From contig NC_059455.1 of assembly GCF_905237065.1 (NCBI RefSeq), positions 34,096,034-34,160,033 of the forward strand: DNA of 64,000 nt. Direction: 5' to 3'. How positions within the stretch are numbered: position 1 is the stretch's first letter; the number at the start of each line of letters is the position of its first letter. The notes under the pieces were generated by a model, which was not told the origin of the DNA, made no database searches, and worked only from the letters and a program-made list of their open reading frames with translations. The DNA comes from Salmo salar (lineage: Eukaryota). This document shows, piece after piece, positions 9,179 to 59,109 of the stretch. The position numbers were made by a program, and so were the translations under genes.

Positions 9179-9425
9179 CGTTGGAGGCGGCTTATGGTAG
9201 AGAAATTCATATTGAATTATCTGGAAACAGCTCAGGTGGACATTTCTGCAGTCAGCATGCCAATTGCACACTCCCTCAAAACTTGAGACATCTGTGGCAT
9301 TGTGTTGTATGACAAAACTGCACATTTCAGAGTGGCCTTTTATTGTCCCCAGCACAAAGTGCACCTCTGTAATGATCATGCTTCTTGATATGCTACACCT
9401 GTCAGGTGGATGGATTATCTTAACG
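9179..9425. mobile_element. 3' terminal fragment of a second Tc1-like family, '...ggaggcggcttatggtagagaaat...cacctgtcaggtggatggattatctt...'.
   Basis: It is collinear with 45400-45640 of the fuller copy at 44080-45785. Confidence 0.6.
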
Positions 9426-12830: not shown

Positions 12831-13048
12831 CTTGTCCAGCCCAGTATTCTCTGTGAATAAGTAAATAGAATACAATTCTCTAACTAGCCAATGTGTAAGA
12901 AACAATCAGTTTATTTAAAGTTCTAACACTATGGCAAATGGCCCAACTTGGCATGTGTAAGAAGAGATCGAGTAACGCAAACAATGTTGTTAATAAAAAG
13001 CAGCAACGTTGGAAGTGGGATATTCGTATGTAATCGCACTTCCGTTCA

Positions 13049-13092
13049 ACTCATAAGGTATTACCGTAAATATGAGACCGCAACAGCCCTTC
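13049..13092 (-). promoter_or_regulatory. Conserved upstream module of ZNF-B (partial copy that lacks TGACGTAA).
   Basis: The module 'tcataaggtattaccgtaaatatgagaccgcaacagcccttc' lies about 220 bp upstream of the exon-1 ATG. Confidence 0.3.
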
Positions 13093-13739
13093 GAATGTGG
13101 TATAGTTTGACACTGGCAAAGCACCAGGGTGTATAAGCCCAACCGGCCGCAGGATGGCGGTATTATTTATTTTACGTCGTTTGTCATGTTACAAACGACG
13201 TAAAAGGAAAAGTACCGCCACCATGCGGCGGTTTGGGCTAGGTGGATTCTTGTCTGCATGTAGGGCAGCCATATCTATTTACAAGAAAATACGACAAAGA
13301 ATTCAGATAGTAAAACTTCTGTTTTTAGTTAAATAGATATGGCTACATGTTGGGGAGAGTGCAGTGGCAGACATGATTATAAATGCAACCAAGGCTATTT
13401 GCATTTATAATGCACAACGCATTGTGGTAAAATACAAAAACACTTTTCAACCATTCATACAAATTCATTGTTTATATACGATCAAATATTGTCATCTCCA
13501 TTCTCATCCACCCAACCTAATGAAACCATTCTGAAAATGTGGTATGGTATTTATTAAAGGATAGAAAAGGGAAATAACTTGTTTGACACACAGCTGGGGA
13601 ACAACGGACGATAAACTAGTTTCATGTGAACTTAAAATTAAACTTAATTTATATATTTCAAGTAACTATTGCAAACTACATGCATTATAGCTGATTTACA
13701 TTGAGGTCCTTCTCTTAGGTTTTTAAAGGCATGTACATA

Positions 13740-52140: not shown

Positions 52141-52406
52141 TTACGAGGCCCCTGGATTTCTGTAATTGTAAAATGTGATGTATCACACCTGGGGTTGAGA
52201 GTCCTCTTCAACAGCCAGCTCTTCGTCTCTCCACTGTGAGTTACTCTGCTTGTTCAAAACAATCTTGACTGGATATGAAGATCTCTCTGATGCCACGGGG
52301 TAAAAAACTGGAAAACAATTCTATTCAGTCAAATATTCACTCGTGTTTTTCTTCAGTTGCTCCATGATGCAATCAAATGACCATGAATAAGAACACATCT
52401 ATATAC

Positions 52407-52620
52407 CTTTTCTTCTGACTCGTCCTCGTGTCTTCTTCAACTCGCTCTCCATCATTTGCCACTTCCTTTTCAGTACATCAATATCTCGCTGGCTTTGGGT
52501 CATTTCCAAACGTATAACAGCACAGCTATCATCTACACGTTTGTTTATTTCTGCTACAGCTGCTTTAGCCAATACCTCCATAACGGATACCAACTGCGCC
52601 TGAAAATTGCAGCTGGCCAT
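52407..52620 (-). CDS. ZNF paralog D, exon 1 ('MASCNFQAQLVSVMEVLAKAAVAEINKRVDDSCAVIRLEMTQSQRDIDVLKRKWQMMESELKKTRGRVRRK').
   Basis: The ATG is at 52618-52620 on the minus strand and the donor is 'GAAAAG|GTATATA'. Confidence 0.6.
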
Positions 52621-52946: not shown

Positions 52947-54010
52947 TGAAACGAAAACGAGGCTGAGGTGGGAAATACTACAGTCGTGGACAAAAGTTTT
53001 GAGAATGACACAAATATAAATGTTCACAAAGCCTGCTGCCTGAGTTTGTATGATGGCAATGTGCATATACTCCATAATGTTATGAAGAGTGATCAGATGA
53101 ATTGCAAAGTCCCTCTTTGCCATGCATTTTACATTTACATTTTACATTTTAGTCATTTAGCAGACGCTCTTATCCAGAGTGACTTACAGTAGTGAATGCA
53201 TACATTTCATTAAAAAAATTCTGTGCAGGCCCCCCGTGGGAATCGAACCCACAACCTTGGCGTTGCAAACACCATGCTCTACCAACTGAGCTACAGGGAA
53301 GCATGCAAATGAACTGAATCCCCAAAAAACATTTCCACTGCATTTCAGCCCCAAAAGGACCAGCTGACATCATGTCAGTGATTCTCTCGTTAATACAGGT
53401 TGAGTGTTGATGAGGACAAGGCTGGAAATCACTCTGTCATGCTGATTGAGTTCGAATAACAGACTGGAAGCTTCAAAAGGAGGGTGGTGCTTGGAATCAT
53501 TGTTCTTCCTCTGTCAGTCATGGTTACCTGCAAGGAAACACGTGCCGTCATCATTGCTTTGCACAAAAAGGGCTTCACAGGCAAGGATATTGCTGCCAGT
53601 AAGATTGCACCTAAATCAACCATTAATTGGATCATCAAGAACTTCAAGGAGAGCGGTTCAATTGTTGTGAAGAAGGCTTCAGGGTGCCCAAGAAAGTCCA
53701 GCAAGAGCCAGGACCGTCTCCTAAAGTTGATTCAGCTGCGGAATCGGGGCACCACCAGTACAGAGCTTGCTCAGGAATGGCAGCAGGCAGGTGTGAGTGC
53801 ATCTGCACGCACAGTGAGGCGAAGACTTTTGGAGGATGGCCTGGTGTCAAGAAGGGCAGCAAAGAAGCCACTTCTCTCCAGGAAAAACATCAGGGACAGA
53901 CTGATATTCTGCAAAAGGTACAGGGACTGGACTGCTGAGGACTGGGGTAGAGTCATTTTCTCTGATGAATCCCCTTTCCGATTGTTTGGGGCATTACATC
54001 AGAATTTTAC
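52947..54010 (+). mobile_element. Tc1-like element (a family with 'tacagtcgtggacaaaagttttgagaatgacac' ends) in plus orientation, 3'-truncated, with transposase N-terminus (HTH).
   Basis: ORF 53484..54032 reads '...TCKETRAVIIALHKKGFTGKDIAASKIAPKSTINWIIKNFKESGSIVVKKASGCPRKSSKSQDRLLKLIQLRNRGTTSTELAQEWQQAGVSASARTVRRRLLEDGLVSRRAAKKPLLSRKNIRDRLIFCKRYRDWTAEDWGRVIFSDESPFRLFGA'. It ends abruptly at about 54010. Confidence 0.75.
53127..53301 (-). repeat. HpaI-type tRNA-derived SINE in reverse orientation, inserted into the 5' region of the Tc1-like element.
   Basis: 'tttacatttacattttacattttagtcatttagcagacgctcttatccagagtgacttacagt...ggccccccgtgggaatcgaacccacaaccttggcgttgcaaacaccatgctctaccaactgagctacagggaag' is the reverse complement of a tRNA-like head plus tail. 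It is flanked by direct 'catgca' at 53121-53126 and 53302-53307. Confidence 0.7.
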
Positions 54011-55430
54011 AAATTATTTTCTGAACAAGTAGCTCCCTTCCTATTTGAAGTCTTTTTAGAGAGTATTAAAAACAATGTTCTCCCTCCTACAATAAGTCAG
54101 GGGTTAATAACACTGATACCTAAGCCTAAAAAAGAAGTGCTGCTCGTCGATAACTGGCGTCCAATTTGTCTTCTTAATAATGACTAGAAGATATTAGCTT
54201 TATTACTTGCAAAAAGAATTAAAGAAGTCCTGGATGCAATCATTGATGAAACACAGTGGGGCTTTATGAGGAACATATTTCTAACGATGTCAGACTAGTA
54301 TTAGACATACTTGACTACTCAGACCTAATAACCGAGGATAGCTTCATATTATTTTTAGATTTTTATAAAGCATTTGACACAGTAGAGCATCAGTTTCTCT
54401 TCCACTCCCTTGAGAGACTTGGCTTTGGGGATTTTTTCTGTAAGGCTATTAAGATTCTCTATACAAATGGTAACAGCTCTATCAAATTGAAATATGGCAC
54501 CTCACCTAGATTTGAGTTAAAGAGAGGGATTAGGCAAGGTCGTCCTATCTCTCTGTACCTGTTTTTATTAATCACCCAACTTCTTTTAAATTCTTTAAAT
54601 AATAGTCCTGTACAAGGTATTTCCATAGCTGGTAAAGAAATTATTATAAGCCAGCTGGCTGACAATACTACACTTATCCTGAAAGATGCTAACCAAATTC
54701 CCATATCGATCAATGTGATACAAACCTTTTCCAAAGCGTCTGGTCTATATCTTAACATTAATAAATGTGAACTCATGGCTGTCAAAACTTGTGTGACACC
54801 TTCATATTATGGTATTCCAGTGAAAGAAGAACTTACATATTTTGGCATAACCATTACAAAGGAGGCTTACTAAATGTTAACCCTCTTATTAAAAACACCC
54901 AGAAGAAACTAAATAAATGGCTACAGAGGGACTTATCTTTAAAAGGAAGAGACCTTCAGCCTTGGTTATTAGGAATCTCCAGACTAACATATGACGCTCT
55001 ATCTTTATATCTCGACAGTAAAATAAGCAAGGAGATAGACCAGATGCTTTTCAACTTTCTGTGGAGAAACCATACCCATTACATTAGGAAAACTGTTGTA
55101 ATGAACACTTATGAGAATGGTGGGCTGAATTTTCTGGACTTTACTACCTTAAATAATACTTTTAAGATCAATTGGATAAAACAATTCCTAAGAAGAATTT
55201 TATTCCTCATCATGTCTTCTCTACTTTTGGTGGATTTAACTTCATGTTGGTTTGCAATTATAATATTGACAAAGTTCCAGTGAAACGTTCTGCTTTTCTT
55301 CGGCAGGTTATTTTGTCATGGTCCTTAATTTATAAGCATAATTTTTCTCCACACAGATATTATATATGGAATAATTGGGATATATATGTTATAAAAATAC
55401 TTCTTTGTTTTTAGAATATTGGTTCCCGAA

Positions 55431-55700
55431 ATAATATCCTATTGGTGAGCCAACTGGTAAATAATATCCTATTGGTGAGCCAACTGGTAAATAATATCCT
55501 ATTGGTGAGCCAACTGGTAAATAATATCCTATTGGTGAGCCAACTGGTAAATAATATCCTATTGGTGAGCCAACTGGTAAATAATATCCTATTGGTGAGC
55601 CAACTGGTAAATAATATCCTATTGGTGAGCCAACTGGTAAATAATATCCTATTGGTGAGCCAACTGGTAAATAATATCCTATTGGTGAGCCAACTGGTAA
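55431..55700 (+). repeat. Perfect 30-bp minisatellite in 9 copies ('ataatatcctattggtgagccaactggtaa'), in frame within the LINE ORF2 remnant (LVSQLVNNIL repeated 9 times).
   Basis: Nine identical units are visible directly. A degenerate tenth unit precedes them ('gaatattggttcccgaa'). Confidence 0.95.
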
Positions 55701-56608
55701 ATGCAGAGGGTCTTTTACTCAGTTATAAGGAATTCTTATCACTTTACAAGGTCCCTGTAACACCTAAAGATTTTGCAATTGTTTTAGATGCCATTCCCTC
55801 AGGTGTTGCTTTATTATTATTTTGGTGAGTTTCATATTTATTAAACATGTGGAACTCTAAGTACGCTGCGCCTTGGTCTACTCCTTTTGACGAGCGTGAC
55901 AGAAGATCCCACCACCAAAGGACCAAGCAGCGTGCCCAGGAGGAGCAGGGATCCTGGGCTAGGGAGAAGAGAGAGTGGAGGACGTCCTGGACCTGGGAGG
56001 AGGTAATGGCAGGGGACAAGACCCTGCCATGGAAGCAGGTGGAGACGGCGCAAGTGGAACGGCGATGCTATGAGGAGCTAGCCCAACAACGGAAGCCCGA
56101 GAGGCAGCGCCCCAAACATTTTTTTGGGGGGCACACGGGGAAATTGGCGAAGTCAGGGTTGAGACCTGAGCCAACTCCCCGTGGGGAGCGAGTGACCGAG
56201 CAAGCACCGTGTTATGCGGTGATGCGCACTGTGTCGCCAGTGCGCACTCACAGCCCGCTGCGCTCGGTGCAAGCTCCTCACTGTTGTCATGCTAGAGTTG
56301 GCCGTCAGCCAGGAAGAAGTGTGCCGGCTCAGCGTTCCTGGTCTCCAGTGCGTCTCTTCGGCCCAGGTTATCCTGCGCCAGCTCTACGCACGGTACCCCC
56401 CGTTCACCAGCACAGCCCAGTTCGTCCTGTGCTAGTGCTCCGCCCTTGCTGGGCTAAAATAACCATCCAGCCAGGACGGGGTGTGCCAGCCCTAAGCTCC
56501 AGACCTCCAGTGCGCCTCCACGGCCCAGTATACCCTGTGCCTGCTTTGCGCACCCAGTCTCCTGTGCGTCTCCTCAGTCTGGTGAGACCGGTTCCAGCTC
56601 TACGTAGG

Positions 56609-56812
56609 AAGCCTCCAGTGATGATCTGTGGTCCGAAGCCTCTAGTGATGATCCATGGCACGAAGCCTCTAGTGATGATCCATGGCCCGGAGCCTGTAGG
56701 GATGATCCATGGCACGAAGCCTCTAGTGATGATCCATGGCCCGGAGCCTGTAGGGATGATCCATGGCACGAAGCCTCTAGTGATAATCCATGGCCCGGAG
56801 CCTGTAGGGATC
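56609..56812 (+). repeat. 27-bp tandem repeat of about 7.5 copies ('gcctctagtgatgatccatggcacgaa' with variants).
   Basis: The units alternate between the variants 'gcctctagtgatgatccatggcacgaa' and 'gcctgtagggatgatccatggcccgga'. They translate as PLVMIHGTK and PEPVGMIHG. Confidence 0.85.
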
Positions 56813-59109
56813 TTGTTTTTGTGTAGCTGCCTGTGAGCAGCCCAGAACGTTACGTTTCGTTTTCTTCTGTATTGTTTTTGGTGAGTTTCATATTTATTAA
56901 ACATGTGGAACTCTAGGTACGCTGCGCCTTGGTCTACTCCTTTTGACGAGCGTGACACTTACACTATTGTGGAGAGATATACTGCTTGGATTCTTTACCT
57001 ACGATGGAAGTAAGCTGAAATATTTGTATGTAATTCATTTCATTATTCTTTTGGCCAAATTTCATATTCACAAATGTAAATTTACAAACAAAAAAACACA
57101 TTTTCTTACCTTACCTTACATAAATAAAAAAACTTGCTAGCTAATTTGTCCTATTTAGCTAGCTTGCTGTTGCTTGCTAATTTGTACTGGGATATAAACA
57201 GTGAGTTGGTATTTTACCTGAAATGCACAAGGTCCTCTACTCCGCCAATTAATCCACACATAAAACTGTCAACCGAATCGTTTCTAGTCATCTCTCTTCC
57301 TTCCAGTCTTTTTCTTCTCTTGACTTTATATTGCGATTGGCAACTTTCATAAATTAGGTGCATTACCACCACTGACCTCGATCGTCTTTCAGTCACCCAC
57401 GTGGGTATAACCAATAAGGAGATGGCACGTGGGTACCTGCTTCTATAAACCAATGTGGAGATGGGAGAGGCAGGACTTGCAGCGCGATCTGCGTCAGAAA
57501 TAGAACTGATTTCTATTTTAGCCCTTGGCAACGCAGATGCTCGTTGGCGCGCGCGAGCAGTATGGGTGCAATAATTGAATAACATAGATTTCAAAATTTA
57601 TTTTGCAGCGCATGTGATGCAAGCTGTGTGGTCAGTCTGTTAGGTGGTGTCGTGCAGATGGAATGATCAAGCAGGGAAGCAGTGGATTAAAGGGGTGATA
57701 ACAGGAGTGCCTGTGAGTATTAGCATTCAGTAGGTAAGGGACAATTTCAGAGGAGGCGTTCTAGTAAATGTTCATAGATTGCAAGCAACAAGGGGTGAAG
57801 TTAGGGCAGATAGCCCGTATATTCTGTTACACTTCAAGGACCAGGTACTTCCAAATAAAGTAACCATTGGGTATATGAGTTATTATGTGAGGGCATATGT
57901 ACCGAAGCCTTTAAGATGTTATAAATGCCAGAGGTTTGGGCATGTGGCAACAGCATGTAAAGAGAAAAAGAGATGTGCCAGGTGTGGAGGGGAGCATGAG
58001 TATGGGAAATGTGGGGATGGTGTAAAACCAAAGAGTTGCAGCTGTGGGGGTGCTCATAATGTGGCATATAGTGGTTGTGAGGCTATGAAGCTGGCAGTGG
58101 AGGTGCAACAAGTGTGAGTGGAGAGAAGAGTGTCTTATGCTGAGGCAGTGAGGGTGGTCTAGGTCCAGAGAGATACAGGTTCAAGAGAGAGATGGGTAGG
58201 AGCATCTAGATCGGGGATTACGGGGCAGGTGGGTGGCGATATGGTATACATAGATAAGAAAAAGTTGGTGACGTTCATAGCAGGAGTTATCACTCGCACT
58301 GCTGAAGTAAAGTCTAAAAGATTAAGCTACTAGTGGAAGCTGCTGGGAGACATCTGAGTATGACAGGGTTGACATGGGAAGAGGTTCAAGATGACCTCAA
58401 TCAGCCGAGGGTGGAGTCATGTATTACTGGATCTTAGTTATGGTGGTAGTACTACAATGGAATGCTCGAAGCCTGTTGGCTAATGGGCAGGAGTTCAAGA
58501 AGTTCATGGTGGATATGCCAGCTAAACCTGATGTGATTTGTGTGCAGGAAACATGGCTCAAACCGAATGTGGAGTTTATAATACAGGGATACGTAGTGGT
58601 TCATAGGGACAGAGGTGTGTGTGTGGGGGGGACTTCCCTACAGGATGCTAGGCAAAGGTATTGAACAGGAATATGTGGAGGTATGGTTGAGAGGAGGGAT
58701 GATAGTGGTAGTGAACTACTATAATCTGTGCCAGGTATTGGACCTAGAAGAGTTGGAGAGGGTGAAGGGCCAGAATAGAAGTAAGGAGTGAACATTACCC
58801 CATAGTATGCACAGTAGGCCAAAGGGAGGAGGTGTCAGTGGATGGAGTAGCAGGTGGGTTTTGAAAGGGCAAAGTTGGATCAGTTTCAGGAGTTAAGTGA
58901 GTGGGTGATGACTTGGGTGGATTTGAGAGGGGAAGTGGATAGTATGAATAACTGGGTGAGAGCAGCTTTAGTGAGAGCAGCAACTGAAGCGAGAGAGAGA
59001 ACGAGAGAGGAGCATCCTGGAGTGCTGGATAGGAGGGTGGATGTAAATGATGCATTGAATATGTTGGTCAATTTCTTCAACAGATGATCAGGTCTATATA
59101 ATTATCAAA

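Follow-up and report, generated by a model that had tools for sequence, protein, structure and literature searches.

A probable degraded, non-autonomous LTR retrotransposon nested in a LINE of Salmo salar, and the salmonid element family to which it would belong

The window analysed here, a stretch of 64,000 nucleotides of Salmo salar contig NC_059455.1, contains at 55820-56957 a segment that comparative sequence evidence identifies as a degraded, non-autonomous LTR retrotransposon nested in ORF2 of a LINE. The two 82-nt direct repeats that bound it are, with a probability of roughly 85%, LTR remnants of a family of salmonid elements, complete copies of which were found in Oncorhynchus keta, Coregonus and Salvelinus alpinus. 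It is homology to these complete relatives on which the proposed identity of the window copy rests, and the case is one of ordinary nested transposon decay and not of a new kind of rearrangement.

The insert and its host LINE

The original prediction, made from the window alone, had placed 80-bp direct repeats at 55818-55898 and 56870-56950 within LINE ORF2; the features it described are present, and it erred in coordinates and in its view of LINE continuity, its interpretation being supported in part. The repeat measures 82 nt, 81 of which are identical between the copies at 55820-55901 and 56876-56957 (spacing 1056), the predicted coordinates being off by 2-7 nt, and a 40-nt piece of it is found at exactly two places in the window, where the expected number is 0. 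The surrounding sequence is indeed a LINE, as indicated by an RVT_1 match at 54256-54873, and the supposition that the enclosed DNA does not belong to it proved right, given that two intact, colinear LINE copies (L128 and L129) lack the segment, which is therefore not a normal part of the LINE consensus, and carry 440 nt of ORF2 where the window has the insert. The LINE does not, as had been thought, continue normally past the second repeat. Similarity to the intact copies ends at 55818 (window 55736-55818 shows 97.6% identity to L129 1-83, and 55669-55818 98% to L128 425-574) and the right part (window 56959-57114, 87.8% identity to L129 524-679) restarts 440 nt downstream of the end of the left part, exactly 440 nt of ORF2 (L129 84-523), or approximately 145 codons including the zf-RVT region, being missing between window 55818 and 56959. 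In protein alignment, LINE homologues run uninterrupted across the insert site, and GC content is about 60% in the insert versus about 35% in the flanking LINE. The features of the window copy and its host are as follows.

54256..55818, + strand: left part of host LINE ORF2, from the reverse transcriptase through '...DAIPSGVA'
55820..55901, + strand: probable 5' LTR remnant, the last 82 nt of the LTR, ending ...CGTGACA
55847..56836, + strand: family ORF, cut to 329 codons here, beginning in the 5' LTR remnant
55903..55912, + strand: putative primer-binding position, AAGATCCCAC, beginning 1 nt past the LTR end
56225..56607, + strand: Pro/Arg-rich in-frame subrepeats with a period of 54/108/162 nt, in units of the type SPVRxHSPVRxxPAPRT
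56608..56811, + strand: in-frame tandem array of 27/54 bp, P[LP]VMIHG[TP]K / PEPVGMIHG
56804..56815, + strand: putative deletion junction, GTAGGGATCTTG, also placed at 56807-56811
56807..56957, + strand: probable 3' LTR remnant of about 150 nt, putative R+U5 only
56958..57140, + strand: right part of host LINE ORF2, '(L)TLLWRDILLGFFTY...KFHIHKCKFTNKKTHF', with the stop at 57138-57140

The 5' remnant aligns with the 3'-terminal ~84 nt of the LTRs in the relatives L005, L006 and L001, and holds a variant poly(A) signal, ATTAAA, at 55840-55845, followed by the ATG of the ORF at 55847; its left junction is ambiguous within ~55815-55823, because the first TTTT may belong to the LINE. From 55902 on, the window aligns with the beginning of the internal region of every copy. 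The 329-aa ORF that had been predicted on the + strand is confirmed, and reads through the primer-binding position into the internal region; the nine codons at its end (ILFLCSCL*) belong to the 3' LTR remnant, the native C-terminus having been lost. With regard to the subrepeats that follow, their existence was correctly noted but not their period, which had been given as about 100 bp and is in reality hierarchical, the best shift being 162 nt, at which two units are 64% identical. The same 162/54-nt subrepeats are found in L001, L005, L006 and L007, and are an ordinary component of the internal region of the family. The 27-bp array, also as predicted, comprises 7.6 copies at 85% match (94% at period 54) and is 87-90% identical to the arrays of L005 (O. 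mykiss) and of contig L004, and is a subfamily feature common to these three copies. In L005 the array sits upstream of a complete 3' LTR, and in copy P0045 ten IHG repeats are followed by the LTR start.

At the right-hand junction of the window copy, an array unit (..GTAGGGAT/GATCC..) is joined to the LTR-internal self-primer site (..GTGGGAT/CTTG..) with a microhomology of GGGAT, as read by comparison with the L005 3' LTR 'GTTGTGGGATCTTGTTTGTGTGTAGTTGC'. At this point the array breaks off, and nothing is left of the 3' internal region, the polypurine tract or U3. The 3' LTR remnant maps to LTR positions 176-341 in L005, 181-339 in L006 and 139-296 in L001, with 111-116 identical among 144-149 aligned positions, and its right-hand end coincides exactly with that of the LTR (...CGTGACA, 56957), the final 82 nt constituting the second copy of the repeat. 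The window copy has no target-site duplication (TSD), complete LTR or polypurine tract, and its left flank has been lost along with the 440 nt of LINE. Two surviving LTR 3' ends of this kind mimic an element with 82-bp terminal direct repeats. Both blastn and tblastn detected no further copies in the window, nor other LTR pieces of the family.

The element family and its ORF

The segment occurs at five other loci without the LINE, that is, independently of its present host, and its earlier description as an unknown composite element was loosely correct, since it would be a separate transposable element. The complete relatives L002, L006 and L007 possess LTRs of 379/379, 339/331 and 500/500 nt with TGT..ACA ends, perfect 5-bp TSDs (ATATC, AGCTG and GAATC, respectively) and, directly before the 3' LTR, a G-run followed by TAC as polypurine tract, which is likewise seen in L005; identity within the LTR pair is about 97% in L002 and L006 and 100% in L007. 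Across the family the LTR is 339-500 bp long, starts with TGT[C/A]AC, ends with CGT[G/T]ACA and has AATAAA/ATTAAA ~55-90 nt ahead of its 3' end. Complete elements measure 2.2-3.6 kb, a single ORF occupying the interior, and they are 67-84% identical to the window copy over long DNA alignments, a value that reaches about 90% within the 27-bp array. A full-length relative closer to the window copy was not recovered, nor was an orthologous site, whether empty or filled.

A protein search with the 329-aa ORF returned 59 homologues, and all those named to species are salmonid (Salvelinus, Oncorhynchus, Salmo and Coregonus); a profile search returned 208 matching clusters. Many of the homologous NCBI gene models are named 'uncharacterized protein' or 'proline-rich protein 36-like', and several are chimeras with unrelated host genes (among them a GPCR, TLR13, CEACAM and PNP). 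An exact-product lookup found no record of an identical 329-aa product, and a metagenome scan with the unspecific 16-nt pattern AGGACCAAGCAGCRTG returned 120 loci, all of them chance matches and none element-like. No description of the family was found in the literature by keywords, sequence strings or peptide motif, although Repbase/Dfam may hold a consensus. As far as the recovered homologues indicate, the family is salmonid-specific.

The primer-binding position suggests how these elements may be reverse transcribed. The sequence AAGATCCCAC at 55903-55912 is complementary to an LTR-internal site, GTGGGATCTT, which would represent the 5' end of the transcript and act as self-primer. An exact 10-nt complement is present at the homologous LTR site in L001, L002, L005, L006 and L007, in four sequence variants, and between 3 and 22 of 2000 shuffles per copy reach the real match. 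Across copies 40/40 cells are paired with three covarying pairs, a result reached by 0/500 shuffles and based, as regards covariation, on 4-5 copies only; slid controls pair at just 37-60%, and the minimum-free-energy RNA fold pairs the 5' end with the primer-binding site. This complementarity points to self-priming of the Tf1/sushi type, with a putative transcript 5' end. A primer-binding site of the tRNA type was rejected on weak grounds, namely that no TGG-initiated match adjoining the LTR was seen by eye.

Self-priming is defined in PMC4600332, which cites Levin 1995/1996 and Butler et al. 2001 (J Mol Evol 52:260). As in Tf1/sushi elements (Ty3/Gypsy), the primer-binding site of the family adjoins the 5' LTR and complements the element's own LTR/transcript instead of a tRNA, and the TSD is 5 bp. 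The LTRs also resemble the Sushi class, with ends TGTYANR...CNTNACA and AATAAA near the LTR 3' end, and the rGmr1 class, with its motif TGTNANR, in their end motifs, in the position of AATAAA and in a T-rich upstream LTR part (PMC3601003). L001, L002, L006 and the window copy end in TGTCACG...CGTGACA or CGTTACA, and the LTR start of L007, TGTAACA, fits the rGmr1 motif but not the Sushi start. On the other hand, the family lacks gag-pol (protease, RT, RNase H, integrase and chromodomain), its ORF is unlike any Gag or Pfam family, and its pairing is 10 bp with a putative transcript start; encoding no pol, it is likened to Tf1/sushi by LTR and primer features and not by RT phylogeny.

Non-autonomous LTR elements are divided into TRIM, LARD (with a long, non-coding interior) and TR-GAG. 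With these the family shares LTRs, a primer-binding site, a polypurine tract and a TSD in the absence of enzymatic domains, and like them it presumably depends on a helper element. However, its size and coding content exceed those of a TRIM, its coding interior separates it from LARD, and unlike TR-GAG its ORF has no recognizable Gag/capsid or zinc knuckle, the predicted structure being mostly low-confidence and disordered. In yeast Ty1, the gag ORF likewise starts within the 5' LTR, and the family ORF similarly starts there and reads through the primer-binding region; Ty1, however, is an autonomous, tRNA-primed element of another superfamily (Ty1/copia).

Purifying selection acts on the ORF, with a dN/dS of 0.28-0.50 in a comparison that leaves out the L001 and L005 rows. 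The ORF frame has the lowest pN/pS of all frames, and no other frame stays open through the internal region of the window copy, L002, L006 and L007. In complete copies the ORF begins within the 5' LTR and ends at the polypurine tract, as in L007 (S. alpinus) with its intact 883 codons, and it consists of a conserved, Trp-containing N-terminal part followed by fast-changing, in-frame Pro/Arg-rich tandem arrays. The predicted 184-aa ORF on the minus strand exists (56404..56958) but was rejected as a gene, and is regarded as a by-product of an antisense frame sharing wobble positions: pN/pS is 0.62 in its frame versus 0.57 for the sense ORF, and in L002, L006 and L007, all of them complete, antisense frames are interrupted by 4-37 stops.

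Searches of Pfam with the window ORF and five relatives (E<=1) and of PDB sequences with the ORF (E<=1) yielded no match, and neither search gave evidence of Gag homology in the form of a capsid and/or CCHC motif. No homologue of the ORF was detected outside the family. Its AlphaFold model has a mean pLDDT of 57 and a pTM of 0.20, with three helices (17-47, 50-55 and 62-82) and the remainder without regular structure or confidence. The family does not encode a protease, RT or integrase, and hence has no gag-pol coding capacity; among the best 150 matches of the profile search none is longer than 432 aa. The absence of Pfam domains together with that of long profile matches marks the element as non-autonomous. 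Since it lacks protease, RT and integrase it must be mobilized in trans, presumably by a Ty3/Gypsy helper; no autonomous partner of the family was found.

Origin of the truncated copy

Partial LTRs, a lost TSD, microhomology at a junction and loss of host-element sequence are what the window copy shares with decayed remnants of nested LTR elements in general, from which it does not differ in anything essential beyond the fact that both surviving pieces are LTR 3' ends. As a specific history, we consider it fairly probable that two deletions shaped this copy, their order and nature being what we infer from the junctions. The element would have inserted itself immediately 5' of the LINE codons (F)TLLWRD, leaving a precise right LTR end. 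A deletion would then have taken 440 nt of the LINE and the 5' LTR except for its last 82 nt, and a second one, at the GGGAT microhomology, would have removed everything from the remainder of the array through U3, with the 3' internal region and the polypurine tract in between. Without promoter and polypurine tract the window copy is dead, and it is owing to its young age that the ORF remains open. As a counterpoint, two large deletions that each clip an LTR are somewhat coincidental when the remnants differ at 1/82 positions.

An alternative that accepts the same family, and to which we would assign a distinctly lower but not negligible likelihood, holds that the element was truncated in the course of its reverse transcription, without subsequent deletions in the genome. 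In such a scenario, the RT would have switched template, leaving the U3/R border at GGGAT and resuming in the array, which yields a cDNA without U3 or polypurine tract, aberrant priming of the plus strand inside R would have generated the 82-nt left repeat, and the abnormal linear cDNA would have been end-joined into a double-strand break in the LINE with resection of 440 nt of target. The 3' remnant does start exactly at the putative transcript start/self-primer site, with the GGGAT microhomology at the junction; at 82 nt versus ~150 nt, the left and right copies differ in length in the direction that the scenario predicts; the TSD is absent and 440 nt of target are lost; and the copy is young, as judged by the 81/82 identity. 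Comparable structures exist elsewhere, as L003 joins internal sequence to a partial LTR 3' end and the 5' LTR of L005 is truncated at its 5' side. However, the sequence upstream of the boundary (56850-56875) is T/C-rich and not purine-rich, which makes it a poor site for plus-strand priming, and the junction keeps putative primer nucleotides 8-11 (CTTG), which strong-stop DNA of the Tf1 type would lack. Moreover, truncation points vary (82, ~100-125 and ~115 nt) as under random decay, and genomic deletion accounts for the GGGAT microhomology equally well.

The two remaining explanations are both very improbable. The original prediction was right that repeats of 80 bp are not a TSD, but it was mistaken in proposing a local duplicative gap-repair or template-switch event in the LINE, whereby ~80 bp would have been duplicated round captured DNA without the repeats being termini. 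The near-identity of the repeats and the loss of LINE sequence at the site would fit a repair event; the proposal is nevertheless already contradicted, in that the 82 nt are not LINE sequence (L128 and L129 lack them), form the LTR termini flanking the same interior in TSD-bearing elements of three other species, and end, in the right copy, exactly at the LTR terminus ...GTGACA, in keeping with retained 3' parts of two LTRs. Equally hard to sustain is the view that the segment is a normal part of the LINE or a host exon of a proline-rich protein gene, for which the long ORF under purifying selection and the many gene models with such names might speak, given that intact LINE copies lack the segment, that the ORF always lies between LTRs with TSDs, starting in the LTR and ending at the polypurine tract, that it occurs in hundreds of diverged clusters and in chimeras with several host genes, and that the window copy has no promoter-bearing U3.

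Significance of the element family

The window itself matters little, as its odd '80-bp terminal repeat element' amounts to two probable clipped LTRs; recognizing this, together with the deletion of 440 nt hidden in the neighbouring LINE, helps repeat annotation. False gene models can also be avoided, since many salmonid 'uncharacterized' or 'proline-rich protein 36-like' predictions, as well as chimeric GPCR, TLR13 and CEACAM models, contain the ORF of the element. The case is thus ordinary and the element family mildly interesting.

The family appears to have been active recently in chars and whitefish, and the 100% identical 500-bp LTRs and intact 883-codon ORF of L007 favour current activity. 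A more far-reaching reading, which we regard as speculative and rather doubtful, is that it constitutes an undescribed, active vertebrate LTR lineage that has discarded gag-pol, and in which the selected Pro/Arg-rich protein serves as a packaging or helper-hijacking factor. This protein would be lineage-specific and largely disordered, would be encoded from inside the LTR through the Tf1-type self-primer site, would carry hypervariable in-frame arrays of 18/27/54/162 bp, and would represent a cis-acting factor of a novel type for a sushi-like helper.

Irrespective of such a role, the family carries a selected ORF without assigned function and would offer, for a non-autonomous element of vertebrates, a clear example of Tf1-type self-priming backed by covariation. 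Its insertions may find use as polymorphic markers, and the family may serve to model how parasitic LTR elements exploit their helpers.

LTR remnants of a dispersed salmonid family

The segment enclosed within ORF2 of the LINE is bounded by 82-nt direct repeats that are identical at 81/82 positions and lie 1056 nt apart from start to start, and a 40-nt piece of this repeat has 2 exact occurrences in the 64 kb compared with 0 expected by chance. The GC content of the insert is ~60% versus ~35% in its flanks, and weaker subrepeats are present with a period of 54/108/162 nt. The original prediction had correctly reported the ORFs of 329 and 184 codons and the 27-bp array; it had also recognized the repeat and the subrepeats, although it placed the former 2-7 nt off and gave the latter a period of ~100 bp.

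Features of the segment and the flanking LINE
54256-54873: RVT_1 domain in the flanking LINE ORF2
55820-55901 and 56876-56957: 82-nt direct repeat
55847..56836, plus strand: ORF of 329 codons
Insert, minus strand: ORF of 184 codons
56608-56811: 27-bp array of 7.6 copies (alternatively period 54, match 94%)

A search of the 64-kb window revealed neither a second copy of the insert nor other LTR pieces of the family. For the window ORF, 59 database relatives were found, annotated as 'uncharacterized' or 'proline-rich protein 36-like', and all species-named matches belong to Salvelinus, Oncorhynchus, Salmo or Coregonus. Several are chimeras with unrelated genes (e.g. GPCR, TLR13, CEACAM6, purine nucleoside phosphorylase), as is typical when gene models incorporate a transposon. 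Searching 1.84 billion representatives with a profile of the N-terminal 150 residues, which are conserved, gave matches to 208 clusters at the 50% identity level, the best 150 of which are all at most 432 aa long and include no polyproteins. The insert is a member of a dispersed salmonid repeat family; genomic loci of several relatives were retrieved, three of them complete.

Complete copies of the family (LTR lengths; LTR identity; TSD; internal region; ORF)
L002, O. keta: 379/379 nt; 97.4%; ATATC; 1481 nt; 498 codons
L006, Coregonus: 339/331 nt; ~97% (2 mismatches, one 8-nt gap); AGCTG; 1532 nt; >528 codons
L007, S. alpinus: 500/500 nt; 100%; GAATC; 2575 nt; 883 codons

In these three copies the LTRs start with TGT[C/A]AC and end with CGT[G/T]ACA, AATAAA/ATTAAA occurs ~55-90 nt from the LTR end with an ATG within a few nt after it, and a G-run followed by TAC, the polypurine tract, lies directly 5' of the 3' LTR. 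From the LTR ATG a single ORF exits the LTR, crosses the primer-binding position and the whole internal region, and terminates shortly upstream of the polypurine tract. The 82-nt repeat of the window maps to the final ~84 nt of these LTRs, and the conserved start of the internal region corresponds to window 55902 onward (GAAGATCCCACCACCAAAGGACCAAGCAGCG...). An O. mykiss locus (L005) belongs to the same subfamily as the window copy (PPVMIHGPK 27-bp array, 87-90% identity) and retains a complete 341-nt 3' LTR downstream of the array. At none of these loci does this LINE adjoin the element, so the insert is found independently of the LINE, a point that the original prediction had raised for checking. 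Thus, the 'terminal repeats' of the window are LTR remnants.

Individual loci display further variation. L007 (Salvelinus alpinus CM134141.1, 2589-6163) contains in-frame arrays of 27 bp x27 and 18 bp x17, and its 100% identical 500-bp LTRs, TSD GAATC and intact 883-codon ORF suggest that it transposed very recently; NCBI's gene model joins this element to a distant exon. In L005 (FR905844.1), the closest in subfamily to the window, the 5' LTR is 5'-truncated with ~100-125 nt left (9189-9309), and an additional diverged LTR lies on the opposite strand (12959-13202). L003 (ENA ERZ14207152 contig, 1-930) comprises an LTR end, ~515 nt of internal sequence, a ~115-nt partial LTR, ~185 nt of internal sequence, a ~27-nt LTR end and flank, and is a tandem or rearranged multimer in which, like in the window, internal sequence is fused to partial LTR 3' ends.

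Junctions and history of the window copy

Two intact copies of the host LINE were used for comparison. Window 55736-55818 aligns to positions 1-83 of one of these (L129) at 97.6% identity and window 56959-57114 to positions 524-679 at 87.8%, and therefore exactly 440 nt of LINE ORF2 (~145 codons, zf-RVT region included) are absent at the insert; the LINE does not, as had been supposed, continue normally after the second repeat. The right junction is a precise LTR end (...CGTGACA, 56957), after which the LINE starts again as CTTACAC where intact copies read TTTACAC. On the left, the last position homologous to the LINE is 55818, within a T-rich stretch that shares no more than ~4 nt of microhomology with the LTR. 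Only the final 82 nt of the 5' LTR and the final ~150 nt of the 3' LTR (putative R+U5) persist. The 27-bp array stops at 56811, where it is fused to the putative self-primer site inside the LTR via a common GGGAT (array ..GTAGGGAT/GATCC.., LTR ..GTGGGAT/CTTG..), and the remaining array, 3' internal region, polypurine tract and U3 are absent. The 329-codon ORF takes its last nine codons and its stop from the 3' LTR remnant, and these thus do not represent its native end.

The simplest history, to which we assign a probability of about 0.6, is that the element integrated normally and then suffered two deletions: one of ~700 nt would have taken out 440 nt of LINE together with the left TSD and the 5' portion of the 5' LTR, and the other, an internal one, would have been mediated by microhomology. 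The main alternative, considerably less probable, is the capture at a break of an aberrant cDNA that had switched template at GGGAT, lost the polypurine tract and had its plus strand mis-primed. It predicts the same layout, but is weakened in that the would-be priming site is pyrimidine-rich, that primer nt 8-11 are kept at the junction and that truncation points vary among other decayed copies (L003, L005).

Other features of the window were also observed. Within LINE ORF2, window 55429-55702 holds 9.1 perfect (100% identical) tandem copies of a 30-bp segment, translating as repeated ILLVSQLVNN; this segment is single in the other intact LINE copy (L128/P0060), indicating that LINE coding sequence expanded here very recently as a minisatellite. 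The 5'-truncated LINE is directly adjoined by an N-terminal fragment of a Tc1/mariner transposase (53484-54032; HTH_Tnp_Tc3_2, E=1.5e-19). Just downstream, 57779-59087 is another retroelement, with a CCHC zinc knuckle ORF and then an ORF matching endonuclease/exonuclease/phosphatase, in a stretch of very strongly positive GC skew (0.3-0.6); it resembles the 5' portion of a separate LINE. Near-identical ~80-nt stretches at ~3439 and ~42516 (minus strand; AACGCCTGAAGGTACCACGTTCATCTGT.CAAACAATAGTA.GCAAGTATAAA.ACCATGGGACCACGCAGCCGTCATACCGC) probably each represent one copy of a dispersed transposon, and a 73-aa ORF at 52399-52620 (minus strand; MASCNFQAQLVSVMEVLAKAAVAEINKRVDDSCAVIRLEMTQSQRDIDVLKRKWQMMESELKK...) presumably resembles the N-terminal exon of zinc-finger or FinTRIM-like genes in fish.

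Complementarity and proposed self-priming

By eye, no tRNA-like primer-binding site was found 3' of the LTR. Nucleotides 2-11 past the 5' LTR are the exact reverse complement of a 10-nt stretch within the LTR, 150-306 nt before its end, and the two sites vary in step from copy to copy.

Paired sites by copy
L002: LTR site GTGGGTGTTT; site after LTR AAACACCCAC
L005, L006 and window: LTR site GTGGGATCTT; site after LTR AAGATCCCAC
L001, a further relative: LTR site GTGGGAAGTT; site after LTR AACTTCCCAC
L007: LTR site GTGGGTGATT; site after LTR AATCACCCAC

A complement of such length arose in just 3-22 of 2000 shuffles per copy. When four contiguous R-U5-PBS segments were aligned, pairing was found in 40/40 cells, with double (compensatory) changes at three pairs in 7 cells, a result equalled by 0/500 shuffles, and sliding the partner by 1-3 columns reduced pairing to 37-60%. 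In the minimum-free-energy fold of the Coregonus segment, the 5' end pairs with the post-LTR site. This complementarity follows the logic of Tf1-type self-priming, with the LTR site as the putative transcription start. In Tf1/Tj1, reverse transcription has been described as primed by the 5' end of the mRNA of the element itself, and self-priming has been implicated in vertebrate Tf1/sushi elements (PMC4600332 and references cited therein). Moreover, the LTR end motifs match those of the Sushi (and rGmr1) LTR classes of Benachenhou et al., which likewise have AATAAA near the LTR 3' end (PMC3601003).

A selected ORF and the nature of the family

Among the window copy, L002, the contig L004, L006 and L007, every pairwise comparison across the N-terminal ~140-210 codons yields a dN/dS of 0.28-0.50, with bootstrap intervals below 1. 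In a frame control based on an alignment made from nucleotides only, mean pN/pS was 0.57 in the ORF frame and 1.0-1.16 in four other frames; the antisense frame with shared wobble positions, that of the 184-codon minus ORF, gave 0.62. The sense frame is the only one open through the entire internal region in the window copy, L002, L006 and L007 (4-55 stops in the other five), and the array periods of 18, 27, 54 and 162 nt are all multiples of three. Taken together, these data establish the sense ORF as a real coding sequence under selection. The 184-codon minus ORF is a by-product rather than a gene, as its wobble-sharing frame is not open across complete copies.

Pfam yielded no match to the ORF, and the PDB no relative by sequence. 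An AlphaFold model of the conserved N-terminal part is of low confidence (mean pLDDT 57, pTM 0.20), with helices at residues 17-47, 50-55 and 62-82 and the remainder without regular structure or confidence. The basic Pro/Arg-rich protein may bind or package the RNA of its own element. Protease, reverse transcriptase and integrase are absent from the family, which is therefore non-autonomous, and a Ty3/Gypsy helper would provide these enzymes.

The window feature derives from, and works like, a self-priming LTR retrotransposon, a candidate member of the Tf1/sushi clade proper in which pol is absent. The family fits none of the TRIM, LARD and TR-GAG classes, and no description of it was found in the searchable literature, a search that did not extend to Repbase/Dfam. 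In conclusion, the finding itself is an ordinary one, with one decayed transposon lying inside another, while the family is of some specialist interest for its covariation-supported self-priming, its selected orphan ORF beginning in the LTR and its hypervariable in-frame arrays, and has apparently been active recently, as judged by the 100% identical LTRs in S. alpinus.
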